Shown here one piece after another: positions 1 to 14,164 of a DNA stretch of 64,000 bases. The DNA comes from Methanomicrobia archaeon. Its GTDB lineage: Archaea; Methanobacteriota_B; Thermococci; Methanofastidiosales; NM3. The stretch's first letter is position 1; each line of letters begins with the position of its first letter. The stretch lies in contig JAUVXU010000003.1 in the NCBI GenBank assembly GCA_030603445.1, positions 23,059 to 87,058 on the forward strand, in the 5' to 3' direction. Both the position numbers and the translations under genes were made by a program. The notes under the pieces were generated by a model. The model made no database searches. It was not told the origin of the DNA and saw only the letters and a program-made list of their open reading frames with translations.

Positions 1-273
1 AAGGCCGATGCATTCAATTATATTGACCAAAAACATGACGGGGGGGCCGTCGTACATATGTAATTCGGGAAAAAATATGTGAAGAGAGGCAGTGATGATA
101 ATCACGATGCTTTTTAGCAAAAAAGCGGATGCAAAGAATATAAGGCCCATTGTGAACTTAGATTTTACATTCTTGTAGAGTCCCCGGAAAACGTAGAGCA
201 ATCCAAGTAATAGACAGAGGTTTATAACTTCCACCCCGAGCATTATGTATATCATCCATTCTGCTATAATCAT
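1..273 (-). CDS. hypothetical membrane protein (3' end runs off the window)
   Basis: Read by hand on the minus strand: ATG at 273-271, open to position 1 (MIIAEWMIYIMLGVEVINLCLLLGLLYVFRGLYKN...), hydrophobic. It lies 46 nt downstream of the ArsR-like ORF. It is absent from the ORF track because there is no stop inside the window. Confidence 0.45.
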   Translation of the reverse strand, partial: MIIAEWMIYIMLGVEVINLCLLLGLLYVFRGLYKNVKSKFTMGLIFFASAFLLKSIVIIITASLHIFFPELHMYDGPPVMFLVNIIECIGL

Positions 274-319
274 GTTCTTCCCTCTTTCACCAATTATTAT
301 AAATCATATCGTTCAGCTA

Positions 320-634
320 TTATTTTTTGCTGATTTGATCCCATATCTCCTTGAAAATATCGTAATTTTTTTCCGTACTAATCGAAAGGAAATACATTGT
401 GCCGTAGCTTTTCCCTCCAGACAATGAAATTATATTGTTATCTTCCAGGACTTTAAGATGATGTCTTACAGTCGTATAGTCCAATCCAAGTTTTTTAGTA
501 AGTTGATTTGCATTATAGGGCCTATCGTGAAGCATCTTGATTATTCTGGCACGATTCAAACCACCTTTCATTCCGCCAATTAAAAACCATAGGAGCCTTT
601 GCATATGTATATCTAACCCATTCGATCCAGACAT
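320..634 (-). CDS. ArsR/SmtB-type winged-helix transcriptional regulator
   Basis: 104 aa; HTH core NANQLTKKLGLDYTTVRHHLKVLEDNNIIS. Confidence 0.7.
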   Translation of the reverse strand: MSGSNGLDIHMQRLLWFLIGGMKGGLNRARIIKMLHDRPYNANQLTKKLGLDYTTVRHHLKVLEDNNIISLSGGKSYGTMYFLSISTEKNYDIFKEIWDQISKK

Positions 635-774
635 TCTATCATTCTCTATGGTTTTTATTCTTAGCTTTCTGTTGTGTTTGATATCTTAATCTATGATTTT
701 ATATACTTTGTTCATATTCCCTCTTTATTCTACAAGTCATGCACATCAATTACATGCCCTTTGTTGGTGATTTC

Positions 775-836
775 ACATAACGTCAGGAATATATGAAGTT
801 TTGTATAATGAAACAAAGCAAAATTTCGAGTTGTGA
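775..836. repeat. attC-like imperfect inverted repeat (short form)
   Basis: ACATAAC 775-781 ... GAAGTTTT/AAAATTTC stem ... GTTGTGA 830-836. Lies between the methyltransferase and ArsR cassettes. Confidence 0.6.
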
Positions 837-872
837 TTCCACCATATAAAAAAGATAGTTTCCGTCGGTAAC

Positions 873-1427
873 CTAATTTTCTAAAATAATCGCTCTGCTA
901 AAAAGCACCTTTTCTTTTTTAGATCGTTTTAATCCCGCTTCCTTTGCAATATTTATTGTATCTTCAAAAGCATTTTTAGAAACATGGAACATAGGTTCTA
1001 TAATAAACATTTTTCCATTTGTTTTTAACATAGACTTTATTTCTTTAAAAAAATTCATTTGATTAGGGACTTCATGAATCATATAAAAAGCTAGAACAAA
1101 ATCAACTTTTTCTGAGATTCCAATTTTGTTCTTTTCGCATTGATGTAATTTGATTCTTTTTTCAATTTCTGTTCCTATAATTTTATTTTCTACTTTTTTG
1201 AGCATGCCTTCTTGTAGATCTGCTGCAATGACTTTGCCTGTTTTACCAACCATTTTTGCCATTTCGATTGAAAAAAGTCCTGGACCACATCCGACATCTA
1301 ATGCGATCATTCCTTCTTTAACATAATCTTTTAGAAGTTTTTTAGGGTTATGAACCCATTTTCTAAAAATATTATCAAGATTTCCTGCATTTTCAACTGG
1401 GCATATTCTTTCATTTTTTTCTTTCAT
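873..1427 (-). CDS. class I SAM-dependent methyltransferase
   Basis: 184 aa; motif I ALDVGCGPGLFS. Confidence 0.85.
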   Translation of the reverse strand: MKEKNERICPVENAGNLDNIFRKWVHNPKKLLKDYVKEGMIALDVGCGPGLFSIEMAKMVGKTGKVIAADLQEGMLKKVENKIIGTEIEKRIKLHQCEKNKIGISEKVDFVLAFYMIHEVPNQMNFFKEIKSMLKTNGKMFIIEPMFHVSKNAFEDTINIAKEAGLKRSKKEKVLFSRAIILEN

Positions 1428-1446
1428 ATTTTATCATCTCTTTTCA

Positions 1447-1803
1447 TTATGATAATTTAAAAGATTCTTTAATATAAAATTCTACTTTTTTGTTTTTAAT
1501 GTCTTCAAACAGGAAAATTTTTATGTGTCTTCTCTGTTTTCCTGTTCCTTCTAAAATATTATCAGGATCAGGTATCATCGCCCCCAAGCTAAACTCAACG
1601 GAAATATGATTTTTTCTGATAAATATTCCACAAATTAATTTTGTATCAATTATAAAAACTAAACCGCCATATTTTATTTCTTCTTTTGCATCAGGTTTTA
1701 TTTCTAAAACCATTTTTCTTAAAGAGATTAGTATCTCTCCTTTTTCTTCATCAATAAAAAGTGTGTCTTGAATAAAGTTATCAATTTTAGGATTTGCTTT
1801 CAT
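1447..1803 (-). CDS. DUF1801 (YdhG-like) domain protein
   Basis: 118 aa. Size and EEIKYGGLVF / ISVEFSLG pattern resemble DUF1801 (assigned from memory). It lies 19 nt upstream of the methyltransferase with no repeat between them. Confidence 0.55.
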   Translation of the reverse strand: MKANPKIDNFIQDTLFIDEEKGEILISLRKMVLEIKPDAKEEIKYGGLVFIIDTKLICGIFIRKNHISVEFSLGAMIPDPDNILEGTGKQRRHIKIFLFEDIKNKKVEFYIKESFKLS

Positions 1804-1863
1804 AGTTATAATAATTCATCTTAGCTATTTAAATATTCATTTTTAGGTGAGGGACAAAATTTT

Positions 1864-1919
1864 GCCTAACGTTTCGCGGATATGAGAAGTTGCAAACGAA
1901 GTAAGCAATTTGGGTGATC
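1864..1919. repeat. attC-like imperfect inverted repeat (short form)
   Basis: GCCTAAC 1864-1870 ... GAGAAGTT ... CGAAG ... GCAATTTGG GTGATCT 1913-1919. It may extend to GTTTCAT 1927-1933, abutting the stop of the upstream ORF. Confidence 0.5.
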
Positions 1920-1932
1920 TCTGGGCGTTTCA

Positions 1933-2280
1933 TTAGCTCATCAATTTATATGATTCTTTAAGAAAGGCAACAAATTTTGTGTCAATGTCATCGGGTGTTT
2001 TTAATCTGAAATAATTGTGATATCTATTCTTTGACACTTGTTCGCATCTAATAATTCTCTCATCCTCGATAGGATGATCTAAAACCATATTGAAATCCAA
2101 CCAATTCTTTTTTGGATGAACTCCGCCAAAATCAGATTTACTTGTTAGATGAATACAAGTCTTCTTCGGGTTAATTTCTACTTGACCAATGTTTTTCTCA
2201 ATAGTTTCTACAATTTTCAAGTAAGTTTGATATACAATTGGATTTCTTTCTGAAAATAATTTTTCTGTTAATGAGTTCAT
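1933..2280 (-). CDS. small hypothetical protein (DUF5655-like)
   Basis: 115 aa ORF with codon usage consistent with its neighbours. The family call is weak. Confidence 0.5.
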   Translation of the reverse strand: MNSLTEKLFSERNPIVYQTYLKIVETIEKNIGQVEINPKKTCIHLTSKSDFGGVHPKKNWLDFNMVLDHPIEDERIIRCEQVSKNRYHNYFRLKTPDDIDTKFVAFLKESYKLMS

Positions 2281-2311
2281 TTTACCAATTTCTATTCCTA
2301 TAACATCTTTT

Positions 2312-2890
2312 TCATTTTCTCAGTTTCAAACAATAGTTCTTTCGCTTTACAATTTCATCCAATATTGAATGAAAAATCTTAGATTTATCTTTAATTTCTA
2401 ACCCGATAGAATCTTTCTTCGCTTTAGTTAATGCCTCTTTCAATTCTTCAACTTCAAAAATAGTAACGGCTATACAATAGTAGTTTTTCGAGCGCCCTTC
2501 ATTAAAATCTTGCAACATCTCCTTGAGTAATTTTTCTCTGATTTTCTGCACCTTTTCAAACTCACTAGCTCCATGCTTCCAGATAAAAGAAATATTATCT
2601 TCAAGTTTTTGATAACATTTGAATGTATCATGCAGTTTCCCAAATTCCCTATGCTTTTTCCATTTCTCACAAATTTGATTTTCCTCACAATCCGAGCAAA
2701 ACTCAATTCCTTTTTTCTTTACTGCACAAGTGATAAAAGGACAGCCGGCACCCATTCTAAATTCACTCTTGCACCCTTCGCATTTGCTTTTAGCCTCTGT
2801 ATGGTATCTAGGACAGAGTCTGCAAGAGAGCCCACAAATTCCGATTTCAGGGTATTTAATTTGCATGATTATTTCTTTTGACATATACAT
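2312..2890 (-). CDS. DUF3795 Cys-rich protein
   Basis: 192 aa; CGLSCRLCP ... CEGCKS ... GCPFITCA ... FCSDCEE cysteine pattern. Confidence 0.65.
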   Translation of the reverse strand: MYMSKEIIMQIKYPEIGICGLSCRLCPRYHTEAKSKCEGCKSEFRMGAGCPFITCAVKKKGIEFCSDCEENQICEKWKKHREFGKLHDTFKCYQKLEDNISFIWKHGASEFEKVQKIREKLLKEMLQDFNEGRSKNYYCIAVTIFEVEELKEALTKAKKDSIGLEIKDKSKIFHSILDEIVKRKNYCLKLRK

Positions 2891-2935
2891 TATATCCAGT
2901 AATATTTGTCACTTCAAAGAAGGAGTTCAGATTTT

Positions 2936-3015
2936 ATATAATGTTTGGCAGATAAAAGAAGTTACCAAAGGCAATTTGGGCGAAGCAAAGCGGAGTCGTG
3001 CAGTCGCTGTTAGGC
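2936..3015. repeat. attC-like imperfect inverted repeat (long form, 5' core degenerate)
   Basis: ATATAAT 2936-2942 ... AGAAGTTACC ... GGCAATTTGGGCGAAGC ... GTTAGGC 3009-3015. Confidence 0.5.
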
Positions 3016-3099
3016 GGCGTAATTAGGTTAGAGTCTCTAAAATATCCATTAAATTTATCAAATCCTCTGTTATATGATGACACGTATAATTCCTTTATT

Positions 3100-4083
3100 C
3101 TATTTTATATGGTATAACAGTTCCATTGCTTTTTTCTCTTTTTCTGATAAATCAACTAAAATTTCAGACGCTTGATTTATAAATTCAATATCTTTTGTTT
3201 TACCTGCTTTGTCAAATAGAGTTGAGACTTTTGCCCATTGATTCGCAATATCGGAAAACATTTTGTATGCTTGATTTAATTGTTCTATTTGCAACAAATC
3301 ATAACTTTCTTTTAAAAAGTCCCTGTAAAGATTTCGGAAAAGAGCTCCACCTGTTCCGGCTTTTTCCATTAACATTGCTGTTGTTGTAAAATCTCTTTCA
3401 ATGTCTTTACTGCTTTTGAACCATTTTTTTATTTCAACACTTGTTTTTAATATGCCTTTGTATCCTATGTTCTTTATTGGTGGGTTTAGATAATCTTTTG
3501 CATTATTCTTTATTGCTGTAATAATAGATTTTTTTAGGTTGTAGCTTTTTTCTGTTTTCTGAATAGTATAAAATAGATTTCTTGAAGACATTGGGCCTTT
3601 TTCATTTCGAGCTAATTCAAGGTTTTTTAAAGATGTTTTTACTTTTCCACCTTGTTGTTGAGTATCAATCAAATATGCAAATTCATTATCATATCCATAC
3701 ATTGCAACATAATGGCCTGCAAAATGAAATTTATTTGTAAAATATTCTAAATGATAGCAATCTAATTTTAAACCAACTGCAACTCCTTGATCAATATTGT
3801 TTTTCACGCTTTCCCATGCTTTTTTTATTGAAGATGTTTCTTTTACTATTAATTTTAAATTCAAATTATTCGTAATATTCTGAGTAAGAACATCTGGTTT
3901 TATTCTTCCGCCAATAAATGGGAAATCCATTATTTTCATATTCCAAAAAATAAAACCTAAACCTTCCCCTAATCCAAAAAGCATTGGTTCAGAAAGTTTA
4001 ATTCCAAGTTGATTCAATAAACTTCCAGTTGCTGTAGTTTCACAATGTTGTCCATTAAACTGCCTGAAATTTTTAATTGTCAT
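3100..4083 (-). CDS. BtrH-N/DUF4872-like (papain-like peptidase fold) protein
   Basis: 327 aa; N-terminus FNGQHCETTATGSLLNQLG resembles the BtrH N-terminal domain (from memory). Confidence 0.55.
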   Translation of the reverse strand: MTIKNFRQFNGQHCETTATGSLLNQLGIKLSEPMLFGLGEGLGFIFWNMKIMDFPFIGGRIKPDVLTQNITNNLNLKLIVKETSSIKKAWESVKNNIDQGVAVGLKLDCYHLEYFTNKFHFAGHYVAMYGYDNEFAYLIDTQQQGGKVKTSLKNLELARNEKGPMSSRNLFYTIQKTEKSYNLKKSIITAIKNNAKDYLNPPIKNIGYKGILKTSVEIKKWFKSSKDIERDFTTTAMLMEKAGTGGALFRNLYRDFLKESYDLLQIEQLNQAYKMFSDIANQWAKVSTLFDKAGKTKDIEFINQASEILVDLSEKEKKAMELLYHIK

Positions 4084-4114
4084 GATGTTTTCCTCTTTTT
4101 TTATGCGTGCTTTA

Positions 4115-4194
4115 ATATAACGTTTTAATAGTACAAGAAGTTGTCGAAGGCAATTTGGGGAAATATTTAGCTTCCCTCTTATCCGCTGTTGTGT
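4115..4194. repeat. attC-like imperfect inverted repeat (long form)
   Basis: ATATAAC 4115-4121 ... AGAAGTTGTCGAAGGCAATTTGGGG ... AGCTTCCCTCTT ... GTTGTGT 4188-4194. The arms pair with bulges. Confidence 0.6.
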
Positions 4195-4292
4195 GAGTGC
4201 AGCAGCACCGAAGCGTAACTAAGTGAGCTCAGAAATCAATTGTTCAGATGAGTGAATGCGATACATTAATAATACAAATTAAAGGGCAAATC

Positions 4293-5141
4293 TTACATAT
4301 CCTCCATTACAGGTTTATCTTCAATAAAATTAGAAGGCAATCCAATTTTCTTAAAATAATCAACCATTGACATGCATGCGAATTTTTCAGTAGAATAATG
4401 AGTTCCACCCAAAACATTTATTCTATGTTTTTCAGCAAATTCATGTGCTTTTTTTGAATGATCGTTTTTTGCAGTAATTCCTGTAACTAAAACATTTACC
4501 TTGTTTTGTGCTATTTCTTCGATGGTCTCATCTAAGCCACCGCCTGCGACAACTGCAACAGTTCCATTTGATATTTCACTATCCCCATAATTATACAAAC
4601 TAACCTTGTGGCCGACCATTTCTTGAAATTTTCTTCTTAAATCTTGAACTGTTGCTAAATCAGTTTTTCCAAACACTCCGCACAAGGAGCCAAAGTAGAG
4701 GGCAAAAGGTTTTTCCGGTTTAATATCTAATGCTTTTGCTAAAGTGACGCTTGTTGAATATTTCCCATAATTATCCAGAGGTACATGAAGATTGTAAATA
4801 GATATTCTTCTATCTTTGAATTGTTGCAATAATTTTCTATCCATCTGCTGAAAAACTTCTGGGGCTTTTCTAATATCCCATATCGAGGGATGATGAACAA
4901 AAAGCATCGCATCTTGAGTCCCGTCATCTAAAATTCTTTGCATAACCTCTCTTGATGGAAAAACAGCAGTATATACTTTATTAATTTCTGTTGCAAAATC
5001 ACAAACTAAACCCATTGATCTTTTCTTAAAGTTCTCACTAAGAAAATCAGCAACAGAGTCCATATACTCTGCCCATTCATCACTCATTTCTGGAGTGATA
5101 AAATCTTTTTCAAGTCGTTGATATAGTTGTGTTGCTTTCAT
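4293..5141 (-). CDS. Nif3-like dinuclear metal-centre protein
   Basis: 282 aa; LFVHHPSIWD and LGGTHYSTE motifs of the NIF3 family. Confidence 0.75.
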   Translation of the reverse strand: MKATQLYQRLEKDFITPEMSDEWAEYMDSVADFLSENFKKRSMGLVCDFATEINKVYTAVFPSREVMQRILDDGTQDAMLFVHHPSIWDIRKAPEVFQQMDRKLLQQFKDRRISIYNLHVPLDNYGKYSTSVTLAKALDIKPEKPFALYFGSLCGVFGKTDLATVQDLRRKFQEMVGHKVSLYNYGDSEISNGTVAVVAGGGLDETIEEIAQNKVNVLVTGITAKNDHSKKAHEFAEKHRINVLGGTHYSTEKFACMSMVDYFKKIGLPSNFIEDKPVMEDM

Positions 5142-5200
5142 AATAAAATTAAATAAACTTAATATTTTATAAGATTTGCTTCATTTGAAGAAAATAAGGC

Positions 5201-5602
5201 TTATTTGTGGGGTGCACAACGTATTAACCATAAACCGGTTAACAGGGCCATCAAGCTACCAAAACCATAGTAACCACAGATCCAATCAGCAACCATTGCC
5301 ACACCGCTGACAAGAGCCACATATTGTGCAATTTTAATCTCTGTAATGCCTTTAGCATATCGCAGTCGCCAGCCCCAGACGACATTCAATCCAGCTGAAA
5401 TAAGCACTATTAATCCACAAACTAGTCCTACGACTGGCGAAACCGAGTGCCAAGAAGATACTGGTGCCAACTTTCCACCTGGTGAAAAGAAAAGTGTCAG
5501 GTCCTGTGCTCCTCCATAAAGCATCAATATCCCGCCCAGAAGGAACACAACCAACCATGCCCAATGATGAAATCCTTGTTTTTTATATATATTTTCCATC
5601 AT
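5201..5602 (-). CDS. hypothetical membrane protein (about 4 TM)
   Basis: 133 aa, hydrophobic segments throughout. Confidence 0.55.
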   Translation of the reverse strand: MMENIYKKQGFHHWAWLVVFLLGGILMLYGGAQDLTLFFSPGGKLAPVSSWHSVSPVVGLVCGLIVLISAGLNVVWGWRLRYAKGITEIKIAQYVALVSGVAMVADWICGYYGFGSLMALLTGLWLIRCAPHK

Positions 5603-5630
5603 GATTAACTGTCCTTTGTCCTTTAAAAAT

Positions 5631-6077
5631 TTATAACTTCTTTTTCATTTCAATGGTGTCCCCAAAATCTTCTGAATGAAGCATTTTTATTTTCTTATAT
5701 CCCCTGTGTTTGTAAAATTCAAAAGAAGTCAAGCTAGAAGATAATTTGGCTGTTTTGTATCCGTTCTTTTTTGCTAAATCTTCAACTCTGTCCATTAGCT
5801 TTGAGCCAATGCCTTTGCCATGAATATTTGGATTAACAAAAACGGTCGATATATTATCATCTTTTAAACTAGCAGTTCCGAGAATTTTTTCATTCTCCGC
5901 GGCAACAAAAACATTTCTTTCTTTTGAATACTGAATTAGTTTAGCAGGGGTGAAATGCTTATGCATAAATTCTATTACACTTTTTGGATAATCTTTACTA
6001 TTGACCTCAGAAAGGCACTTTCTAGTTAAGTTAGAAACTTTTCTTGCATCTTCTTTTTTGAAGTTCCTAATACGCAT
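5631..6077 (-). CDS. GNAT family N-acetyltransferase
   Basis: 148 aa; VFVNPNIHGKGIGSKLMDRVEDLAKKNGY acetyl-CoA binding motif. Confidence 0.85.
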   Translation of the reverse strand: MRIRNFKKEDARKVSNLTRKCLSEVNSKDYPKSVIEFMHKHFTPAKLIQYSKERNVFVAAENEKILGTASLKDDNISTVFVNPNIHGKGIGSKLMDRVEDLAKKNGYKTAKLSSSLTSFEFYKHRGYKKIKMLHSEDFGDTIEMKKKL

Positions 6078-6133
6078 AGTATTAATAAGAATTTAAGATG
6101 CTATAAATTTTCTGTTCTCAGACGCAAAAGTGA

Positions 6134-6196
6134 ATACAATATTTTGAATATACGAAGTTTAGCAGAAAATTCCGAAAAGTAAAATTTGAGCTCCAA
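6134..6196. repeat. attC-like repeat, both core heptamers degenerate
   Basis: ATACAAT 6134-6140, 13 nt spacer, GAAGTTT 6154-6160 ... AAAATTTGA GCTCCAA 6190-6196. It has the same geometry as 775-836, but with AAC>AAT and GTT>GCT. Confidence 0.5.
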
Positions 6197-6333
6197 TCCA
6201 TATTTCCTTATTGCCCGGATACGCAACATAGAATATTTTAAAAAGAATCAAGTAAATACATTTACCATACATATTGAAAAAATTGGCAGAGAAATGTTGC
6301 AGATACTTTGTCAAAATTAAGGGATGAATAAAA

Positions 6334-7758
6334 ATGTTGGAAAAACATCAACTACTAATTAAAACACTTAATGAAAAACAAAAAGCCTATTTAAATTTAA
6401 ATTTGCCGAATCCAAGAAATGGAGAATATCTTCTTACAGTTTTTCATCTTATCCCTGGAGAAAAATTAAATATCTTGCAAGCAGCAGCAGAAGTTGCGGC
6501 CGAATCTTCTACTGGAACAAATTTTAAGGTAGATACGGAAACGCCCTTTTCTAGAGAAATGAACGCTCTTGTTTACCAACTTGATTTAAAAAGAGAATTA
6601 GTGTGGATAGCTTACCCCTGGAGACTTTTTGATAGGGGAGGAAATATTCAAAATATCTTTACATATATAGTGGGAAATGTTTTGGGAATGAAACAAGTCA
6701 ATGCCCTAAAATTATTAGATGTGTGGTTCCCTCCTGCAATGCTTGAACAATATGATGGTCCGAGTTATACGATTGATGATATGAGAAAATATTTAGATGT
6801 ATATGACAGACCTATTCTTGGAACCATTGTAAAGCCAAAAATGGGGCTTACATCTTCTGAGTATGCAGAAGTGGCTTATGATTTTTGGGCAGGAGGCGGA
6901 GATTTTGTCAAAAATGATGAGCCGCAGGCAAACCAGGATTTTTGTCCATATGACAAGATGGTAAAATATGTAAAAGAAGCAATGGATAAAGCAGTTAAAG
7001 ATACTGGAAAGAAAAAGGTCCATTCTTTCAATGTTTCTGCAGCTGATTTTGACACGATGGTTGAAAGATGTGAAATGATTATAAATGCTGGTTTTGAACC
7101 TGGAAGTTACGCATTTTTAATTGATGGAATTACTGCCGGGTGGATGGCAGTTCAAACTTTAAGAAGAAAATATCCAGATGTATTTATTCATTTTCATAGG
7201 GCGGCCCATGGGGCGTTTACAAGAGTAGAAAATCCATTGGGTTTTTCAGTTTTAGTTCTATCTAAATTTGCAAGGTTGGCAGGAGCATCAGGGATCCATA
7301 CTGGAACGGCTGGCGTTGGAAAGATGTCTGGAAACCCGGAAGAAGATGTTGTAGCTGCACATAACATTCAATACTTTACAGCAAAAGGGCATTTCTTTGA
7401 ACAGAGCTGGGGAAAGATTCCTGAAAAAGATGAAGATGCGATAAAACTTGTTCATGAAGATCTTACACATCTTCTTATTTTAGAAGATGATAGCTGGAGA
7501 GGAATGAAAAAATGCTGCCCCATTATCTCGGGAGGGTTAAATCCAGTTTTGTTAAAACCATTTATTGACATAATGAACAATACTAATTTTATAACTACAA
7601 TGGGGGCGGGGGTTCATGCTCATCCGGGAGGAACAAAAGCAGGAGCTAAGGCATTGGTTCAGGCGTGCGAAGCTTATAAAAAAGGAATAGATATTGAAAA
7701 ATATTCCAAGAAACACAGCGAGTTGGCAGATGCCATAAAATTCTTCTCAAAAAAATAA
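6334..7758 (+). CDS. rbcL: ribulose-1,5-bisphosphate carboxylase/oxygenase, form II/III large subunit
   Basis: 474 aa. Catalytic motifs present: VKPKMG, GGDFVKNDEPQ, HFHRAAHGA, GIHTGTAGVGKM, ISGGLN. A 29-aa insertion (KIPEKDEDAIKLVHEDLTHLLILEDDSWR) precedes GMKKCCPIISGG, as in Methanococcoides-type II/III enzymes. Confidence 0.95.
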   Translation: MLEKHQLLIKTLNEKQKAYLNLNLPNPRNGEYLLTVFHLIPGEKLNILQAAAEVAAESSTGTNFKVDTETPFSREMNALVYQLDLKRELVWIAYPWRLFDRGGNIQNIFTYIVGNVLGMKQVNALKLLDVWFPPAMLEQYDGPSYTIDDMRKYLDVYDRPILGTIVKPKMGLTSSEYAEVAYDFWAGGGDFVKNDEPQANQDFCPYDKMVKYVKEAMDKAVKDTGKKKVHSFNVSAADFDTMVERCEMIINAGFEPGSYAFLIDGITAGWMAVQTLRRKYPDVFIHFHRAAHGAFTRVENPLGFSVLVLSKFARLAGASGIHTGTAGVGKMSGNPEEDVVAAHNIQYFTAKGHFFEQSWGKIPEKDEDAIKLVHEDLTHLLILEDDSWRGMKKCCPIISGGLNPVLLKPFIDIMNNTNFITTMGAGVHAHPGGTKAGAKALVQACEAYKKGIDIEKYSKKHSELADAIKFFSKK

Positions 7759-7759
7759 A

Positions 7760-7878
7760 TTAAAGTAGAAATTGATGAGGATAGTGAAAGAAGTTAATGA
7801 GCTATAATCTTTGTTGAAAATCTTTTCAATTCCAAAAAGAGCACTCAAAAGATAGAAAACTAAAAATTTGAGTTAATC
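7760..7878. repeat. attC-like repeat (long spacer, 5' boundary uncertain)
   Basis: AGAAGTT 7789-7795 ... AAAAATTTGA GTTAATC 7872-7878. Lies between the rbcL stop and the GNAT stop. Confidence 0.45.
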
Positions 7879-7886
7879 ATAATTCT

Positions 7887-8363
7887 CTATAATAATATTC
7901 TCATTTTAACAAATTGGTGTTTGTCCCCATTTGTTTCCTGCATATACTCTTCAACTATCTCAAATCCTATCTTTTTGTATGTTTTTATTGCACGTTCATT
8001 AAACTTTGCTACTACTAACATTATATAATGCCCATCATATCCATAATGCTTTATACCAAATTTTATACCAGACATTGCAAAATCGGACCCATACCCTTTT
8101 CCTGTATATTTGGGGTTAAGCCCAAAACCAACCCACATGACATTATAGATAAAAGAAAAAGAATAAAAACCAATCAATTCTTTGGATTGATTTAAGACCG
8201 CAAATATATACTTCCATTGTTTTAAATCCAAGAAATCATTTAAATCTTCTTCATCAGCAGTCATATCATAAAAAGAATAAATACCTTCATATTTCCACTG
8301 ATAAGCAATTTCATTGGCATATTTTTCATTCATTGGGACATAATTATATTTCATAGAGATCAT
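7887..8363 (-). CDS. GNAT family N-acetyltransferase
   Basis: 158 aa; LNPKYTGKGYGSDF and NERAIKTYKKIGFE motifs. Confidence 0.8.
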   Translation of the reverse strand: MISMKYNYVPMNEKYANEIAYQWKYEGIYSFYDMTADEEDLNDFLDLKQWKYIFAVLNQSKELIGFYSFSFIYNVMWVGFGLNPKYTGKGYGSDFAMSGIKFGIKHYGYDGHYIMLVVAKFNERAIKTYKKIGFEIVEEYMQETNGDKHQFVKMRILL

Positions 8364-8380
8364 TTTTAGAGATGTATTTT

Positions 8381-8452
8381 AGATAACTATTTTAAACGGA
8401 TCTTCTGTTCGCTTAACATTCTTCTTAGGATTTAAAGCGAGATTTGATTAAA
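8381..8452. repeat. attC-like repeat, second sequence family, 3' half decayed
   Basis: AGATAAC 8381-8387 ... TTCGCTTAA/TTTAAAGCGA hairpin. Homologous to 12799-12877. Confidence 0.45.
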
Positions 8453-8602
8453 TCCAAATAAAAATATTTTGGAAATAAATAAATCTTTCCCCAAACCATT
8501 TTAAAAAAGTTAAATATATTTGATAATACTAATGCTGTAAAAACCTCATTTTTATAACAATGTTCTTTTTAGATTTTGTATAAAATTATCTTTTTTTGCA
8601 CC

Positions 8603-8694
8603 CTTAAGATTGTGATAAAAAAGAGAAGTTTTCACGAATTGAAGATTTGAGTGAGACACGAGCCGAGTGTCAAACCTTTTATCCATTGTTAGAC
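8603..8694. repeat. attC-like imperfect inverted repeat (long form)
   Basis: ATAAAAAAGAGAAGTTTTCAC pairs with GTGTCAAACCTTTTAT. Ends with GTTAGAC 8688-8694, a perfect GTTRRRY. Confidence 0.55.
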
Positions 8695-8709
8695 GACGAG
8701 CCAAAAACA

Positions 8710-9123
8710 TTATACAATTACTTCTTTTCCACATCTACTACATTTGTAATGATAAAAAATGACGATTCCTCCACAGGAAGGGCATGACCATCTTCGCTTC
8801 TGATACTCAAGATAGTTTACCATCCCTATTTGTTTCATCTTTTCAAAAATCTCCGGAATCTCATGTCTGTACCTAAATTTCGGGTCTCCAAGATGAGTAT
8901 CAAGAAGTTTCTTCCTATATTTTTCACATGGAAAATTACTACAATCAATGCAGAAATCTTTCTCTTCAATATTATAGCAACAATCCCTTATTTTGCATCC
9001 CCATTTGCTTGTTCTTTTTTGTTCTTTACTTTCTGAGGCACATCCAAGACAAGTCTTATTAAAGGAAGGACATGCTCCACAAAAAACTCCACAAGGAGCC
9101 AATTCATTTGGTATTTGTTTCAT
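8710..9123 (-). CDS. DUF3795 Cys-rich protein
   Basis: 137 aa; CGVFCGACP ... CLGCAS ... CKIRDCC ... FCIDCSNFPC pattern. Confidence 0.65.
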   Translation of the reverse strand: MKQIPNELAPCGVFCGACPSFNKTCLGCASESKEQKRTSKWGCKIRDCCYNIEEKDFCIDCSNFPCEKYRKKLLDTHLGDPKFRYRHEIPEIFEKMKQIGMVNYLEYQKRRWSCPSCGGIVIFYHYKCSRCGKEVIV

Positions 9124-9180
9124 ATTATTTCCTTCATTTGTTAGATATTTAGCATGCCATCTAACGTTTTGTGGATATTC

Positions 9181-9265
9181 TTAACGTCCTAAATTTCTTC
9201 ATCGTTCTGCCTTTAAAAACTCTAAAAACTCCTGGGTATGCTTGTTGATAAGAGGCATCCTTTAG
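9181..9265 (-). repeat. ~80 bp copy of the junction between the 378-aa and 133-aa genes at 16404-16489 (gene-fragment relic)
   Basis: Hand alignment of 9185-9262 to 16408-16486 gives 4-5 mismatches in ~78 nt. In this copy the 133-aa gene start survives only as MKKFRTLRISTKR-stop. Confidence 0.8.
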
Positions 9266-9321
9266 TAAATTAATTATTAGTTCTTTTTATATTTTATTTC
9301 AGGCGTTCCAAAGCCGATTGC

Positions 9322-9394
9322 GTATAACACTAAGATTTAAAGAAGTTTACGAAACGAAGTGGAGCCGGCTATTCGCTGATACATGTGGTTGTGT
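9322..9394. repeat. attC-like imperfect inverted repeat (long form)
   Basis: GTATAAC 9322-9328 ... AGAAGTTTACGAAACGAAG ... central AGCCGGCT palindrome ... GTTGTGT 9388-9394. Confidence 0.6.
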
Positions 9395-9402
9395 CAAATA
9401 TT

Positions 9403-10173
9403 TCAGGACACTTTATCAGCTCTTGTAACAATAAAAGCATTCGTGAATTCATCTAGTAATTCTTCGCCTTTATCCTCATAAAATCCGGAAATGCTAAAAC
9501 CAGCCTCTATCTGGCCATTGATTTGGTCTGTAAGGCTATGCCCGAATTCGAATGGCGCCATATTTTCAGTATACTCTTTCTTTTTAGCATCTGATAAAGA
9601 TTTTAAATCAGAATATGGGATAGCAGTTTCTATTACACATTTTCTTGTCTTCTCAGCTTTTTCCCAGTTTATCATATACATAATAGGATTATTAAATCCA
9701 GATAATAATCTGCCATTCTTTTTTAGGACCCTGTAAGCTTCCCTCCAAACAGGCAAAATATCATCAATAAAACAATTTGAAACTGGATGAATTATCAGAT
9801 CAAAAGTATCATCTGAAAATATTGACAGATCTTGCATATTTCCTTTTACAGTTTTTATATTTAAATTGTATTTAACTGCAATTTTTTTATCTTGTTCAAG
9901 CTGTTTGTCGGAATTATCAAATACAGTTACATTTGCACCTGCAGCAGCCAAGATAGGACCTTGCTGTCCTCCCCCCGAAGCTAAGCACAAAACATTCTTA
10001 TTAACTATATTTCCAATCCACTCTTCTGGAACGGTCTTAAAAGGCGTTAGGACAATTTTTATTATGCCTTTTTTAGCTTCCTGTATCTGTTCTTCTGAAA
10101 TTGGGATGGTCCATTGATTTCCTTTTTTAACTTCATTGTTCCATGCAATTCTATTATGTTCTAATAAATTCAT
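9403..10173 (-). CDS. class I SAM-dependent methyltransferase
   Basis: 256 aa; VLCLASGGGQQGPILAAAGANVTVFDNS. Confidence 0.8.
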   Translation of the reverse strand: MNLLEHNRIAWNNEVKKGNQWTIPISEEQIQEAKKGIIKIVLTPFKTVPEEWIGNIVNKNVLCLASGGGQQGPILAAAGANVTVFDNSDKQLEQDKKIAVKYNLNIKTVKGNMQDLSIFSDDTFDLIIHPVSNCFIDDILPVWREAYRVLKKNGRLLSGFNNPIMYMINWEKAEKTRKCVIETAIPYSDLKSLSDAKKKEYTENMAPFEFGHSLTDQINGQIEAGFSISGFYEDKGEELLDEFTNAFIVTRADKVS

Positions 10174-10202
10174 TTCTTATACTTCCTTTTTGGTATAATT
10201 AC

Positions 10203-10290
10203 ATATAACGCATGTCATTAAAAGAAGTTACGTAAGAAATTTGAATGGAGAAACCTGCAAGATTTCGTAGTCTTTTATCTGTCGTTATAT
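10203..10290. repeat. attC-like imperfect inverted repeat (long form, best preserved)
   Basis: ATATAAC 10203-10209 and GTTATAT 10284-10290 are exact inverse complements. The arms TTAAAAGAAGTTACGTAAGAAATTTG / CAAGATTTCGTAGTCTTTTAT pair with bulges. Confidence 0.7.
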
Positions 10291-10450
10291 TCCCAAAAAA
10301 AGAAATTTCAGAGTAAATCTGGAACCCGTTTATTTGAATTTAAAGGAATTGTCGTATTCAATTCTATCTATTTTGGAATTTTGCAACCAGTTCTTTTTGT
10401 TTTTTGTTCGATTGTAAGATTTTTTGGATTTTAGACATATTTTTACCTAT

Positions 10451-11041
10451 TCAAATATGAATTATAAATTTACAGCTTTTTGCTCCAGTGATTACTGATT
10501 GCACAAGTTCTACTTCAACTGGTTTTTCGAGCGCTACTTCAAAAAACTGCTTTTCCCATTCAGCACCACACTGACAATATGTGTCTGTAGAAAAAGGTTC
10601 TTTAGTTTGTTTAACCTGTCCGCAAAAGCATTTATCATACTCCACGATAACTGTATTCTTGTTTTTTAATTTGAAGCTAACGCCTTTATAATTTTCATTT
10701 AATTTATCAAGAAATTCATTAATAGACTTTGATTCACTCATCAATTTCTTCACAGTCTTTCTATGTCCCTGCCCGCAGCATTTTTGACCGCAGGCCTTCA
10801 TTATCTGGACTACTTTTTCCTTGTCCAATTCTTTTTCTAACTGTTCAATAGCTTCTTTCCACCACTCAGCTTGTTTGACGGGGTTAAATGAATTGTATTT
10901 GTCCGAACCCCGCATGATTTTCTCCAAAATCTCTTGATCAACTTCTGCCATAAGGATTTTTGCAAATCGTCCTATTCTGCCCGTTACTGGGATCTTTGCG
11001 CCGGATTTATTTTTTGTAATCATGGTGTTTTCTCCATTCAT
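10451..11041 (-). CDS. Cys-rich hypothetical protein (DUF6144-like)
   Basis: 196 aa; CGQKCCGQGH ... CFCGQV ... YCQCGAEW ... SCKF. Confidence 0.5.
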   Translation of the reverse strand: MNGENTMITKNKSGAKIPVTGRIGRFAKILMAEVDQEILEKIMRGSDKYNSFNPVKQAEWWKEAIEQLEKELDKEKVVQIMKACGQKCCGQGHRKTVKKLMSESKSINEFLDKLNENYKGVSFKLKNKNTVIVEYDKCFCGQVKQTKEPFSTDTYCQCGAEWEKQFFEVALEKPVEVELVQSVITGAKSCKFIIHI

Positions 11042-11060
11042 AATGTTAAATTAGCGTAAT

Positions 11061-11798
11061 TTAATATTGAATGACTTTTGGAACATCTTTAGAAACATTG
11101 ACACATAACTGAATATCTTTCACGGTAAATTTCCCTTTTGTATACTTCCTTTTATTATTAATTTCTGCAAGTTTCTTAAAAAGATTCTCTGCCTTTGATT
11201 TTGATATTTTTTCCGCTGTATCTGTTCCAGATTCTAAGAAAATTCTAGCAAATATTGGTCCAATCCATTTTATTCTTGATATATCTGTTAATTTTACAAG
11301 TTCCATTAGTTCTTCGCTTGAAATATTTGCTTGTTTGGCTAATTCAGATCTTTCCTTTTTTGTTTTAATTTTTCCAAATAAATGCTTCGTGTTTTTAAGG
11401 CCAAATTTTCCCAGTTTATCTATTACCTCATTTTTTATACCAGGAAATTTATTTAAGTTTACAGGTTTTGGCTGATAACTATTAACTTCCCTTATTAGAA
11501 TTGTAAGATAATCCTCCGGCAAACCTGATTTTTTAGCAAATTCTTTTACATTTTTTGGTGTTTTCAAAACATTGACTATATCCTGAAGATTTTTAATCCC
11601 CTGTTTTTTTAGGCATTTGATTCTTTCTCCTATTTGCTCTTTTAAAATCATTCTACTCGGAATCATTTCTGATTGTTCAAGCACTTTCTGGTATTTTTCA
11701 ATACTAAAATTTTCTAAATTGATATGATAGTTATCAGTCGTTTTGCTTGCATCCTTAACACTGATGTTTGGTGTAAGACTTTTCGTTGTTGCCCCCAT
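11061..11798 (-). CDS. DUF4332-like helix-hairpin-helix repeat protein
   Basis: 245 aa. Repeated K-rich HhH-like segments; the family call is from memory. Confidence 0.5.
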   Translation of the reverse strand: MGATTKSLTPNISVKDASKTTDNYHINLENFSIEKYQKVLEQSEMIPSRMILKEQIGERIKCLKKQGIKNLQDIVNVLKTPKNVKEFAKKSGLPEDYLTILIREVNSYQPKPVNLNKFPGIKNEVIDKLGKFGLKNTKHLFGKIKTKKERSELAKQANISSEELMELVKLTDISRIKWIGPIFARIFLESGTDTAEKISKSKAENLFKKLAEINNKRKYTKGKFTVKDIQLCVNVSKDVPKVIQY

Positions 11799-11857
11799 AA
11801 TTACTATATTAAAAATTAAAATTTATAAATATAATCATTTTTTGGAATTAAGTAGGA

Positions 11858-11884
11858 AAAAATACAATATTATCCCCCTCTTTT
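11858..11884. repeat. 27-nt exact repeat (cassette leader), copy 1
   Basis: AAAAATACAATATTATCCCCCTCTTTT, identical to 12957-12983. The homology continues towards the adjacent attC-like site. Confidence 0.85.
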
Positions 11885-11932
11885 TAGAAAGCCTATCTAA
11901 TGTATAAGAACGAAAAATATTTTTTGAATTAT

Positions 11933-11993
11933 ATATAACATTTGGGATATACGAAGTTTTGCGGAATGAAACGAAGCAAAATTTGGGTGAGGA
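11933..11993. repeat. attC-like imperfect inverted repeat (short form)
   Basis: ATATAAC 11933-11939, 13 nt spacer, GAAGTTTTGCGGAATGAAACGAAGCAAAATTTGG GTGAGGA 11987-11993. Same geometry as 775-836. Confidence 0.55.
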
Positions 11994-12101
11994 GCGATAA
12001 TGACGAAAGCGCAGCGTTCCTTTGAGTTCCGAACCCCACCCGTTTCAATCAATCATTATTCAGAAATTTTCTTTGATAAAATCACTGATCCATCTTCTTG
12101 A

Positions 12102-12719
12102 TTATTTTTTAGCCTCATTTTTCCATCGGGGTAGTTCTGGCATCATTTCATCAATCATTTTTTCTGCATCCTCTCTTGTTTTACCCATAAATTTCATTGC
12201 CGCGTTTATGCTCCCCTCTCTTACCTGTTCCTTGCTTGCCAATTCACCTGTTTGTTGATTCTGACAATGGATGCAATATCGGTTGTCGATTTTAGATGTT
12301 GTGCTTTCATCAATCGAAAGCGGCATTCCGCAACTTTCACACTGAACCATTCTTGCATCTTCATCACATTCCCAAAGCCCAAAGGTATTATTTTCAGTGT
12401 CAATGCAAATCGCAGCATATCCTATACTTGGGACAGCTGTTTTTGGCATCACTATTTTGCCACCGAGTTTTTCAACTTTGGCAATATATACATCAATTGA
12501 GGGAACATCAATATAATTGACAATTGCATCTGACGGGTTTTCTCTTTTTCCAAGCCCGCCGCCAAGACCTTTTTTACCGTCTTCATCTACTGTTTCAATT
12601 CCGTAGTATTCCACAGGGCCTGGCATTTTTTCAATTTTCCATCCAAATAGTTCAGTATAGAACTTCTTTGCTCGCTCTATATCATCTGCTGGCACCATAA
12701 AATGAGTTATTGCTGGCAT
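12102..12719 (-). CDS. VOC (glyoxalase/bleomycin-resistance fold) protein with C-terminal zinc ribbon
   Basis: 205 aa; HFMVPADDIERAKKFYTELFGWK followed by CESCG ... CIHCQ. Confidence 0.75.
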   Translation of the reverse strand: MPAITHFMVPADDIERAKKFYTELFGWKIEKMPGPVEYYGIETVDEDGKKGLGGGLGKRENPSDAIVNYIDVPSIDVYIAKVEKLGGKIVMPKTAVPSIGYAAICIDTENNTFGLWECDEDARMVQCESCGMPLSIDESTTSKIDNRYCIHCQNQQTGELASKEQVREGSINAAMKFMGKTREDAEKMIDEMMPELPRWKNEAKK

Positions 12720-12798
12720 TTTTATCCACCTCCTTATCTTATTTAAATTAAATTTGAATATATATAAAATTTTTTCTAAAAGCGGGGTTTGGAATTTT

Positions 12799-12877
12799 AT
12801 ATAACTAATATTAAACGAACCTTTTGTTCGCTTAATACCTTGTCTCAGAGTTAAAGCGAAGTTTTATAAAGTTGGAT
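12799..12877. repeat. attC-like imperfect inverted repeat (second sequence family)
   Basis: ATATAACTAATATTAAAC pairs with GTTTTATAAAGTTGGAT. Inner hairpin TTCGCTTAA/TTAAAGCGAA. R' is GTTGGAT at 12871-12877. Confidence 0.65.
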
Positions 12878-12956
12878 TGAAGCAGATTTGAAATTAAAAT
12901 TTCTCTATAAAAAGGCATGGACGCTAAGCATAGATTTCATCTAATAATTTATTGTC

Positions 12957-12983
12957 AAAAATACAATATTATCCCCCTCTTTT
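12957..12983. repeat. 27-nt exact repeat (cassette leader), copy 2, in an ORF-less unit
   Basis: Identical to 11858-11884. Confidence 0.85.
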
Positions 12984-13040
12984 GTTTTAGAAAAAATCAA
13001 TTTATTCCTTTTCATCTTAGAAAAATATTTTTTAGATTGA

Positions 13041-13134
13041 GCATAATATCGAGATTTAGAGAAGTTTTCGACGAAGTTAAAAATTTGAATGGAAGAAACT
13101 GAAATTTTCTGGAACCCCTAAATCTTTGTTATGT
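13041..13134. repeat. attC-like imperfect inverted repeat (long form)
   Basis: GCATAAT 13041-13047 ... GAGATTTAGAGAAGTTTTCGACGAAGTTAAAAATTTGA pairs with TGAAATTTTCTGGAACCCCTAAATCTT ... GTTATGT 13128-13134. Confidence 0.65.
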
Positions 13135-13257
13135 CTGTTTTGAAGAAACTAAGAGTTAGTGCAACGGTTGACGAAACCAAAACCCACGGAGTTTTTATAT
13201 TTAAGAATTATAATAAATTACGAACAAAGTGAGTGTAAAATTAAGAAAAAAAGCCCT

Positions 13258-13992
13258 CTAAAAAATTAATTTACTTTTTTGAGTATAAATCATGTAACTC
13301 TTCATTAAAGATATTACTATTAGAGTTGTTGATAATGAGGTAGTTTCCATAATTTTCCATCTTTGATTTTCTTTCTTATCAACACCGTGAGCTTTACCCA
13401 TTGACCTAATACTTGAAAGGCCCGCTGTTAAATTATTTAGCTTTGTTGGAAATTTATTATTTTGATTAAACAATTGAGCTATCTGTGCTATTCCCTGGCA
13501 CTTAGATAAGTTTAAACCACTATTAAGATCAATTCTTAAAAAATCCTCTAATGCTCTGCCTAAATCATTGATTGATTCTTCTGGATCAGATTTTGTATGG
13601 ATTATTGCAGTAATTAAATCTTTTAAGACATTTGGAGAAATTCGTTTATAATAATCTCCAAATTCTTCTTTTAAAAATTTTCCTGTTAAAACTTTATTCT
13701 GTACTGATTTTTCTAAACTTTCTAATGTTTTATTTTTATTTGTTTTGTCACTTATTCTTATTTTAAGTATCTTTATCCATCCATCCAAAATGTTTTCAAT
13801 AGTCGCATGATTTTGCTCAATATCATAAAATTTTTTTAGAAGTTTAATGGAATCTTGTTTTGATTTTTTCTTTGACAAGAAATATACATATTCAATTAGA
13901 ATTTTATCTTCAGCTAAAATTTTTTCGATTGTCCTTTTTGAACTTTCTTCTGTACCATCAATTTGATTGAAGATACCTTCTGAAAGAATCAA
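13258..13992 (-). CDS. hypothetical protein with possible C-terminal HEPN-like R-x5-H motif
   Basis: 244 aa starting at a TTG. Contains SIRSMGKAHG (R-x5-H). The frame stays open 54 codons further upstream (to 14151) and encodes a winged-helix-like segment with no ATG/GTG/TTG start. Confidence 0.4.
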   Translation of the reverse strand: MILSEGIFNQIDGTEESSKRTIEKILAEDKILIEYVYFLSKKKSKQDSIKLLKKFYDIEQNHATIENILDGWIKILKIRISDKTNKNKTLESLEKSVQNKVLTGKFLKEEFGDYYKRISPNVLKDLITAIIHTKSDPEESINDLGRALEDFLRIDLNSGLNLSKCQGIAQIAQLFNQNNKFPTKLNNLTAGLSSIRSMGKAHGVDKKENQRWKIMETTSLSTTLIVISLMKSYMIYTQKSKLIF

Positions 13993-14164
13993 CTGTTGTT
14001 TATTTTTTGAAACTACTAATTTTTGTTTCAGAAAATCAAGACCTCTTTGAATGTAGGAAGGGGTTTTATTTAAGTAGTTCAGAATATCTTGTTCAGTGCA
14101 ATCTTTTCCTTTCCTCCTACATTCAAAAAAAATTAGAATATTTGATATTATTTAAATTGGCGGA

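Follow-up and report, generated by a model that had tools for sequence, protein, structure and literature searches.

Integron surveys depend on a model of the attC recombination site and on the additional domain of the integrase IntI. A canonical attC serves as substrate in the form of its folded single (bottom) strand, in which extrahelical bases determine polarity. The Vibrio cholerae repeats (VCRs) of sedentary chromosomal integrons fit the attC model and are served by a true IntI, and sites of the dif type are ~28-bp duplexes with an 11-6-11 layout, which flank pdif modules in alternating orientations. In Archaea, Ghaly et al. 2022 (PMC9668308) reported canonical attC sites, most of which recombine with IntI1, and IntIs that carry the additional domain. 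Their Data S1 lists canonical clusters of attC sites lacking an integrase (CALINs) in metagenome-assembled genomes (MAGs) of Methanofastidiosum, Methanoperedens, ANME-1, Methanosalsum, Methanoregulaceae and Methanothrix. Smyshlyaev et al. (bioRxiv 10.1101/542381) described 'integron-like' relatives of IntI without the IntI insertion in IS91 and IS3 elements. Here, we analysed a 64-kb stretch of contig JAUVXU010000003.1 of an archaeal MAG (the window), of which the first 15 kb carry genes separated by co-oriented repeats. A first reading of the letters (the sequence-only reading) had taken these repeats for attC sites and their presence in a methanogen for the novelty. As CALINs are already listed in methanogen MAGs, an integron in a methanogen is not new in itself; the apparent novelty lies in the type of site and in the type of recombinase that goes with it. 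Our comparative analyses lead us to propose, with a probability of about 70%, that positions 1 to 14998 are an orphan, partly decayed cassette array of a non-canonical integron-like system.

The window repeats are not canonical attC sites

Our tally of the repeats gives ten sites of one type (type-1), two hairpin-type sites and one remnant (9154-9177), all in one orientation and spread over 13 kb, in agreement with the 13 sites counted in the sequence-only reading. Terminal boxes of the RYYYAAC and GTTRRRY types are present in most copies. These heptamers and the shared GAAGTT...AATTTG motif were recovered where they had been placed, and the second sequence family recognized at 8382-8452 and 12799-12877 is real. 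GAAGTT-N6-30-AATTTG occurs seven times in the window, always on the plus strand and within 1886-13087, and is missing from 15-64 kb; its mean in shuffled sequences is 0.7, and none of 100 shuffles reached seven. Defining an array as at least two co-oriented sites <4 kb apart with open reading frames (ORFs) mostly pointing one way, the 12 sites and the remnant constitute one.

Two other kinds of repeats were considered and set aside. A CRISPR-like array is ruled out since the units contain genes. Scattered copies, which the sequence-only reading had regarded as the mark of a generic repeat, were not found in the 49-kb flank and every copy is co-oriented, so that within the window we rejected a dispersed repeat akin to repetitive extragenic palindromes (REPs) or miniature inverted-repeat transposable elements (MITEs).

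As a reference for attC sites, we used the attC top strands employed in the experiments of Ghaly et al. 2022, ten in all (aadA7 and nine archaeal sites; PMC9668308). A covariance model, R1, was built from seven of them with the textbook pairing imposed (R''/R', L''/L', two unpaired bases). Tested on the nine cassette junctions annotated in two class-1 integrons, R1 detected 7/9 at E <0.01 on the right strand; because two control matches are near-identical to the aadA7 training site, this amounts to six of seven attCs unlike the training set. Run on the whole window with filters off and E up to 10, it gave best matches at E 0.4-9, none of them on a repeat. Neither did it match, at E up to 1, the intact copies of the same element that we found in metagenomes (see below). 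The proposal that the repeats are attC sites thus failed with a model that finds most control attCs.

The sequence-only reading also described each site as an inverted repeat pairing end to end. DNA folding contradicts this, with a terminal hairpin only at 10203-10292 and 13041-13136, and compared with dinucleotide shuffles none of the 12 window sites folds convincingly better (z-scores from -1.84 to +1.6, several of them positive). Conservation among the window copies chiefly concerns the RYYYAAC-bearing half and the GAAGTT..AATTTG inner hairpin, i.e. the 5' half on the plus strand, which is the 3' half in gene sense. Most window sites have kept this half, and their arms are non-complementary.

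A family of structured elements in metagenomes

We scanned JGI metagenome contigs with a gene-sense pattern derived from three window copies, CCCAAATTGC-N3-15-AACTTCT-N12-14-RTTA. This 20.5-base pattern returned at least 120 matches, for ~18 expected according to our own chance estimate, and the matches share far more sequence than the pattern itself. A loose pattern applied to viral contigs gave at least 120 single chance matches and was uninformative (loci L016 to L135, discarded as junk).

In gene sense, the element is 82-100 nt long and reads yATAAC A GCGGATAAAAG G (variable hairpin) CCCAAATTGCC-TTCG-GGCAACTTC TTTTATCCGC AAAAC GTTATAT GAAAT. It is composed of R'' (yATAAC), A, L'' (11 nt), the variable hairpin, an inner hairpin (CCCAAATTGC..GCAACTTC), L', AAAAC, R' (GTTAyry) and GAAAT. 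R'' and R' form a TATAAC/GTTATA stem, the L stem has 11 bp, and the inner hairpin is conserved. In an alignment of 43 sequences at <90% identity, 91% of the cells are paired, compared with 30-48% after a shift of the partners by 1-3 columns. Pairing reaches 82% in the R stem, with compensatory changes in 4/7 pairs, and the L stem shows such changes in seven of its 11 pairs (e.g. GCGGATATGAG/CTCATATCCGC, GCGTGTATGAG/CTCATACACGC and AAGAATTAACAG/CTGTTAATTCT). Intact copies fold as a predicted three-way junction with z-scores of -2.35 to -4.1. Mismatches in the stems are balanced between G.T (30) and A.C (37), which fits a DNA-level structure better than an RNA structure. Searches of seven array loci against Rfam gave nothing at E up to 0.1.

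Conservation runs past the R' heptamer into the next cassette, as nearly all cassettes have GAAAT or GCAAT directly after R'. A subset of them (L144, L155, L159, L156, L169, L244, L253 and others) opens with a further conserved motif, GTTAnnnGAAATTCCGAACCCnnCCTTT, just after R'.

For a second covariance model, R2, we used exclusively metagenome copies. It recognizes six window sites at E <=0.037 and a seventh at 0.67, with nothing significant in 15-64 kb. All model matches are on the minus strand and inside the island, which bears out the co-orientation noted earlier. A hidden Markov model (HMM) of the 3' half of the element supports four window sites beyond those of R2. In the R2 alignments many L-stem pairs are broken in the window copies, which agrees with their poor folding. 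The island and its sites are as follows.

1-14998, minus strand: AT-rich cassette island, delimited by the GC profile and by blastn blocks against the related locus L260
770-836, minus strand: E1, type-1, degenerate, 3' half (inner hairpin, L', R') recognizable, 5' arm lost; 79% identity over 57 nt to 11928-11984, 3'-half HMM (770-800) E 0.07, z -0.06
1864-1931, minus strand: E2, type-1, 3' half only; R2 E 0.0034 (1864-1953), 3'-half HMM E 4e-13; ORF 1933-2280 abuts the position of its 5' arm
2936-3017, minus strand: E3, type-1, chimeric from the L260 junction analysis; R2 E 2.5e-8, many broken L pairs
4115-4196, minus strand: E4, type-1, chimeric from the L260 junction analysis; R2 E 1.5e-11, z +0.27
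6134-6218, minus strand: E5, type-1, weak or degenerate, adjoining the plus-strand RuBisCO gene; R2 E 0.67, 82% identity over 34 nt to 11933-11966
8382-8452, minus strand: H1, hairpin-type (attI-like), from comparison with the attI-like sites of L257, L176 and L168
8602-8696, minus strand: E6, type-1; R2 E 0.037
9154-9177, minus strand: element remnant, L'-spacer-R' only, at the 5' end of a DUF3795 cassette; 3'-half HMM E 0.016, alignment with L250
9322-9394, minus strand: E7, type-1, degenerate (R box and GAAGTT, no AATTTG); 3'-half HMM (9317-9347) E 0.15, z +1.6
10203-10292, minus strand: E8, type-1, best preserved, folds end to end; R2 E 4.9e-5, z -1.84, 10 of 200 shuffles folding equally well
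11933-12047, minus strand: E9, type-1, 3' half conserved, 5' arm diverged; 3'-half HMM (11928-11988) E 0.0023
12799-12877, minus strand: H2, hairpin-type (attI-like), TATTAAGCGAAC-AAAAG loop-GTTCGTTTAATA, TTA, GTTATAT
13041-13136, minus strand: E10, type-1, rightmost and upstream-most site; R2 E 8.8e-4

H1 and H2 share the layout of attI-like sites, and neither adjoins a recombinase. Elsewhere, hairpin-type sites are found next to the recombinase (L257, L176) or between cassettes (L168).

Two side observations concern the surroundings of the window sites. A perfect 27-nt repeat, AAAAATACAATATTATCCCCCTCTTTT, occurs at 11858-11884 and 12957-12983, followed in each case by a palindromic GAAAAATATTTTTTG motif (11905-11930; 13020-13049) adjoining two of the elements. 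The AAGAACGAAAAATATTTTTTGAA string is also present upstream of an element in metagenome contig L182 (2670-2700), and a similar motif lies at the right boundary of the island (~14995-15012) in both the window and L260.

Arrays and an associated tyrosine recombinase

R2 detected 174 matches in 100 loci, among them co-oriented runs of eight elements in L209, five in L138 and four each in L212 and L151. In 17 arrays, the longest ORF is in the sense of the element in 37 of the 43 inter-element intervals, and the median unit is 814 nt. Start codons of the metagenome copies, with ribosome-binding sites of the GGAGG type, are 30-50 nt past R'.

Recombinases were searched for by tblastn with IntI1 and then with its best match. 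L182, L194 and L176 each encode a tyrosine recombinase, on the strand of the cassettes and directly upstream of the first one; fragments of it are present in L199, L251 and L140. The recombinase passes the NCBIfam model of XerA (NF040815; 245 bits for a cut-off of 220) and fails that of the integron integrase (TIGR02249; 222 for a cut-off of 265), the latter match being split in two stretches. Its identity to IntI1 is 31%, and ~43 IntI1 positions within residues 179-245, the additional domain, are gapped. The nearest solved structures are those of IntI4 (2a3v) and XerA (5hxy and 4a8e), with similar E-values. Judged from these comparisons, the predicted enzyme is about equally close to XerA and IntI and is devoid of the IntI additional domain. 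This absence, together with the loss of folding in most window copies, speaks against the array of attC sites envisaged in the sequence-only reading. The recombinases also possess an additional N-terminal domain (~90 aa; L182 397-660, L194 1326-1487, L176 1480-1600), which contains a conserved RWHPEEKYWSFP motif and gave no Pfam match at E <=0.001. Two copies resemble pseudogenes, the one in L194 through a frame change and the one in L176 through an internal deletion.

Homologues at 58-91% identity, among the best 120 listed, come from MAGs named in NCBI as Nitrospirota, Acidobacteriota, WOR-3, Thermodesulfobacteriota, Armatimonadetes and Micrarchaeota, and they are often called 'site-specific tyrosine recombinase/integron integrase'. 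We fetched four loci by recombinase homology alone. Three of them have R2 elements downstream in the same orientation, namely L257 and L258, which are the same locus in sister genomes of WOR-3, and L259, labelled Micrarchaeota. The fourth, L256 (Acidobacteriota; recombinase homologue at 10001-11116), has no R2 element in the following 2 kb of contig; it represents either an In0-like locus or an unrelated use of the enzyme.

In the 64-kb window itself, tblastn with IntI1 and with the array-associated recombinase detected no tyrosine recombinase, which substantiates the earlier remark that no integrase was in view.

Cassette exchange between related genomes

The two WOR-3 loci have identical recombinases and flanks at 99.8% identity, and they differ in their first cassettes: the DUF5714 cassette of L257 (11334-12140) is swapped in L258 for a segment with two other genes (7033-7954). 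On the left, the break falls within 8 nt after the GTTAGGC of the attI-like site (TATAATAGCAC-TCG-GTGCTATTATA, AACGA, GTTAGGC); on the right, it precedes GTTATCT, the R' of an R2 element, by 2 nt. Each swapped segment has its own element with complementary arms. Such a replacement is the pattern expected of recombination between the attI-like site and an element at G/TT.

Cassettes of the window recur in other arrays beside other neighbours. This is the case for one cassette that includes the element remnant.

8673-9177, minus strand: DUF3795 cassette, 87% identical at the DNA level to 5926-6433 of metagenome contig L250, where it is flanked by intact elements

In L168, a homologue of the window glyoxalase ORF (12123-12383) is directly followed by the DUF1801 cassette (1857-1414 in the window); the two are 10 kb apart in the window. 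The homology of the DUF1801 cassette with L168 begins ~11 nt past the GTT of the preceding site.

For the protein encoded by the first chromosomal gene of the flank, the protein collection contains only one homologue, at 88% identity, and the contig of this homologue, L260, has the same island at the equivalent place. Comparison by blastn gave five collinear blocks at 90-93% identity (815-1431, 2288-2980, 4111-5178, 5621-8521 and 14999-17452), between which are segments restricted to the window.

15094-16023, plus strand: first chromosomal flank gene, used as the anchor to find L260 by homology search
1432-2287, minus strand: window-only segment with DUF1801, E2 and DUF5655, replaced in L260 by one intact element
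2981-4110, minus strand: window-only single-gene BtrH_N/DUF4872 cassette (ORF 3100-4083) between E3 and E4, absent from L260
5179-5620, minus strand: window-only segment with a 133-aa membrane ORF, replaced in L260 by an element
8522-14998, minus strand: window-only 6.5-kb multi-cassette segment including ORFs 13258-13992 and 14165-14896, absent from L260

The island extends past the left edge of the window, and its right limit at ~14999 is where collinearity with L260 resumes. H1 is conserved in the fourth block and is the outermost array site in L260. At the place of the BtrH_N cassette, L260 has one intact element (R2 E 1.1e-13, z -3.3), composed of the left part of E3 (on the plus strand) joined to the right part of E4. 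The L' arm of E3 and the L'' arm of E4 are still complementary at 9/11 positions. E3 and E4 are thus chimeras, and the BtrH_N cassette was inserted, or precisely lost, by an exchange inside the conserved core; for this reason E3 and E4 no longer pair. The sequence-only reading had proposed to look in relatives for cassette presence/absence with breaks exactly at G/TT. The former is observed within the island, with a collinear flank; as for the breaks between the window and L260, one is in a core and three are elsewhere. By this comparison, the array is dynamic between sister genomes.

The explanation that survives best next to ours addresses this recent history. In the archaeon, the repeats might act only as portable homology: homologous or short-homology recombination of the host between the ~45-nt cores would add, remove and reshuffle cassettes, with no site-specific recombinase at work. 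The E3/E4 exchange argues for it, given its position in the core, the outer arms that remain complementary and the single intact L260 element at that place; so do the broken stems and the 64 kb devoid of a recombinase. Nevertheless, the short cores of E3 and E4 share only ~76% identity, the three other junctions between the window and L260 are outside cores, and elsewhere the element family breaks at R'. We consider this explanation improbable. It concerns recent events rather than the nature of the elements, and it is compatible with a decayed array of a non-canonical integron-like system.

Proposed mechanism and alternative explanations

In its intact form, seen in related loci, the system has four parts. 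The first is a tyrosine recombinase with an extra N-terminal domain of ~90 aa and no IntI additional domain. Immediately downstream on the same strand comes the second, an attI-like site made of a short perfect hairpin, a 3-5 nt spacer and GTTRNNN. Cassettes, mostly of one ORF in the same sense, form the third, and the 82-100 nt element that ends each of them the fourth. The catalytic mechanism, the folding strand, the crossover position and the agent that shuffles the cassettes of the window are matters of inference. As single-stranded DNA or as a cruciform, the element would fold into a three-way junction whose R and L stems offer a core site of the Xer type. Strand exchange by the recombinase would occur at, or next to, the G/TT in R' and in the attI-like site, and cassettes would thereby be inserted and excised as in an integron. 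In the archaeon of the window, the array may be serviced weakly, or no longer, by a recombinase acting at G/TT. Shuffling may now take place by short-homology recombination in the cores or at a second crossover point, and AT-biased decay could have contributed further to the broken sites.

Several points weigh against this interpretation. The whole case is built on comparative sequence analysis. Linkage to the recombinase is seen in a handful of contigs, for a family with thousands of members, and at least one of these, that of L256, has no element nearby. A recombinase could lie in the part of the 131.7-kb contig beyond the 64-kb window. The scan pattern was drawn from E2, E3 and E4, whose central 42 nt are similar by construction; the independent evidence of membership is therefore provided by their arms and by E6, E8 and E10. 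R1 is our own proxy made of seven sequences and is distinct from the model of IntegronFinder. The balanced stem mismatches do not tell the folding strand apart. Finally, three of the four indel junctions between the window and L260 are not at R boxes, and at two of those three the window is without an element that L260 has. Site-specific exchange at G/TT alone therefore does not explain the recent history of the array.

A more conventional explanation would be an ordinary CALIN, whose canonical attCs would be served in trans by a true IntI from another locus, in the manner of the archaeal CALINs of Ghaly et al. 2022. The RYYYAAC/GTTRRRY-like terminal boxes, the co-oriented array, the accessory cargo and the AT-rich composition are in its favour, and such arrays are reported in Methanofastidiosum and other methanogens (PMC9668308). 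Yet R1, which retrieves six of seven independent control attCs, is blind to the window sites at E up to 10 and to the intact metagenome copies at E up to 1. Geometry is another difference: the loop that separates the R and L stems has 1 nt versus 5 nt, the L stem has 11 bp, and an inner hairpin is conserved. In addition, the linked recombinases fail the IntI model. We thus regard an ordinary CALIN as very unlikely.

Least probable of all, by a small step, is that the elements are not recombination sites at all but regulatory structures of 3' untranslated or intergenic regions (terminators, RNA-processing signals or promoters) or a selfish repeat of the REP/MITE kind: their position after stop codons, in the sense of the genes, their conserved hairpin with a TTCG loop and an AT-rich, TATA-box-like R' region 20-60 nt upstream of the next ATG in several window units would suit such roles, but on the transcribed strand G.U does not outnumber A.C in the stems (30 versus 37), which argues against RNA structure, no Rfam family matches, and the elements are confined to arrays, absent from the 49-kb flank, linked to recombinases and associated with a cassette replacement bounded by GTT boxes.

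Composition, cargo and chromosomal setting of the island

In line with the sequence-only reading, which had found the block more AT-rich than the adjoining 49 kb, the GC content is 0.27-0.36 for positions 1-15000 versus 0.37-0.48 for the remainder of the window. Strand bias was also confirmed, although with 17 of 18 main ORFs on the minus strand by our count instead of the 18 of 19 given earlier; the sole plus-strand ORF codes for a RuBisCO large subunit. Pfam searches identified ArsR, two S-adenosylmethionine-dependent methyltransferases, DUF1801, DUF5655, two DUF3795 proteins, BtrH_N/DUF4872, NIF3, two GNATs, DUF6144, DUF4332 and a glyoxalase with a Zn-ribbon. The mixed, accessory character attributed to the cassette products therefore holds, Pfam agreeing on the GNATs, methyltransferases, glyoxalase, DUF3795s, DUF1801, NIF3 and ArsR. 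PADLOC gave no matches for four island ORFs of unclear function.

The RuBisCO gene (6334-7758, plus strand) lies within the island antisense to the cassettes. Its product scores 649 bits with NCBIfam PRK13475, under the cut-off for type III, and the gene is kept at the equivalent place in L260. The two ORFs at the upstream end of the island (13258-13992 and 14165-14896, minus strand) code for proteins of ~244 aa each, are AT-rich and absent from L260, and have no Pfam family over threshold and no PADLOC match. For the methyltransferase cassette at 9403-10173 (minus strand; 256 aa), homologues at 61-87% identity are present in thousands of metagenome contigs, usually without the element, including MAGs of Chloroflexota and Deltaproteobacteria. 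In L010-L015, homologues at 74-85% identity are found in unrelated contexts without the element; such contexts show only that the gene travels. An 80-nt stretch in an ORF-less interval of the array (9181-9260), noticed through a 94% match to the orthologous region of L260, closely duplicates 16404-16483, i.e. the 3' end of the DUF530 gene and downstream sequence. This suggests that part of the flanking sequence has been copied into the array.

The flank is archaeal core genome, with genes for DUF530, GGGPS, GluRS, HisRS and RFC. mcrC and atwA are adjacent (33967-36181, minus strand) and their products exceed the NCBIfam cut-offs; mcrABG are absent from the window. The four genes mcrC, atwA, GGGPS and RFC reported in the sequence-only reading were thus all verified, and the host chromosome is archaeal, Mcr-encoding and Methanofastidiosa-like. 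In a species-level genome set, the closest relatives of the DUF530 gene, at 57-62% identity, belong to Methanofastidiosia/Thermococci MAGs and NM3. These relatives have no island, and L001-L003 among them have no R2 matches. Rfam searches of the window yielded only a tRNA; the tRNA match at 28045-28194 (plus strand) spans 150 nt for a 71-position model, and an intron is therefore probable.

A possible second lineage of gene-capture platforms

Element and recombinase together may represent a second lineage of integron-like platforms for gene capture, undescribed to date, a proposal that we make tentatively and to which we grant slightly less than even odds as a whole. It combines a recombinase intermediate between XerA and IntI, devoid of the additional domain, with a three-way-junction site. 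By the MAG names of the recombinase homologues it would extend over many bacterial phyla, and it would include Archaea, with the contig labelled Micrarchaeota and the Methanofastidiosa-like chromosome described here. Literature searches with concepts and with conserved sequence words returned no description of the element family, their coverage being incomplete and the result an absence of evidence only. Current integron finders probably do not see the system.

If true, the existence of such a lineage would bear on the evolution of IntI and attC from Xer and dif. A parallel system that fails both tests on which integron surveys depend would mean that these surveys overlook a large reservoir of mobile cassettes as well as a path for gene exchange between bacteria and archaea. 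If a recombinase near both XerA and IntI acts on folded sites while being devoid of the domain by which extrahelical bases are read, this would give a clue to the origin of integrons from Xer. The window would then offer a picture of such an array stranded in an archaeal chromosome, with chimeric and decaying sites and cassettes still turning over relative to a sister genome.

Comparison with known systems

The closest likeness is with classical integrons and CALINs. Common features are a recombinase belonging to the Xer/IntI branch of tyrosine recombinases, a site for insertion next to its gene, co-oriented and mostly single-ORF cassettes that end in a structured imperfect palindrome with RYYYAAC...GTTRRRY outer boxes, a replacement between close genomes bounded by GTT (at the attI-like site and R'), and orphan arrays without a recombinase. 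In contrast with IntI, the present recombinase has no additional domain, fails TIGR02249, has an extra N-terminal domain and is oriented in the sense of the cassettes. The sites also differ from classical attCs: they are missed by the canonical-attC model R1, and instead of an unpaired spacer of 5 or 6 nt and extrahelical bases, they have R and L stems parted by a loop of 1 nt on one side and 5 nt on the other. The L stem has 11 bp, and a conserved core of ~45 nt forms a second hairpin, hence the three-way junction.

With the archaeal integrons of Ghaly et al. 2022 (PMC9668308), the present system shares cassette arrays in archaeal MAGs, including those of methanogens and Methanofastidiosum, mostly as CALINs, an attI immediately downstream of the recombinase gene, and cargo such as GNATs, cupins and methyltransferases. 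It differs in that the window sites are not canonical attCs and the linked recombinases are without the additional domain. The IntI relatives of Smyshlyaev et al., which we compared by description only, likewise have no IntI insertion, but they belong to IS91 and IS3 elements, not to cassette arrays.

Vibrio VCR-type arrays resemble the present ones in being long and in having sites that share extended sequence identity beyond structure; here, however, a distinct core is what the sites conserve, and chimeric or decayed copies are numerous. Lastly, the recombinase exceeds the NCBIfam XerA cut-off, which relates it to the Xer elements (XerA/dif, pdif and integrative mobile elements exploiting Xer). 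A Xer/dif module was nevertheless rejected, as the present sites are structured, co-oriented and 82-100 nt long, unlike alternating duplex sites of ~28 bp.

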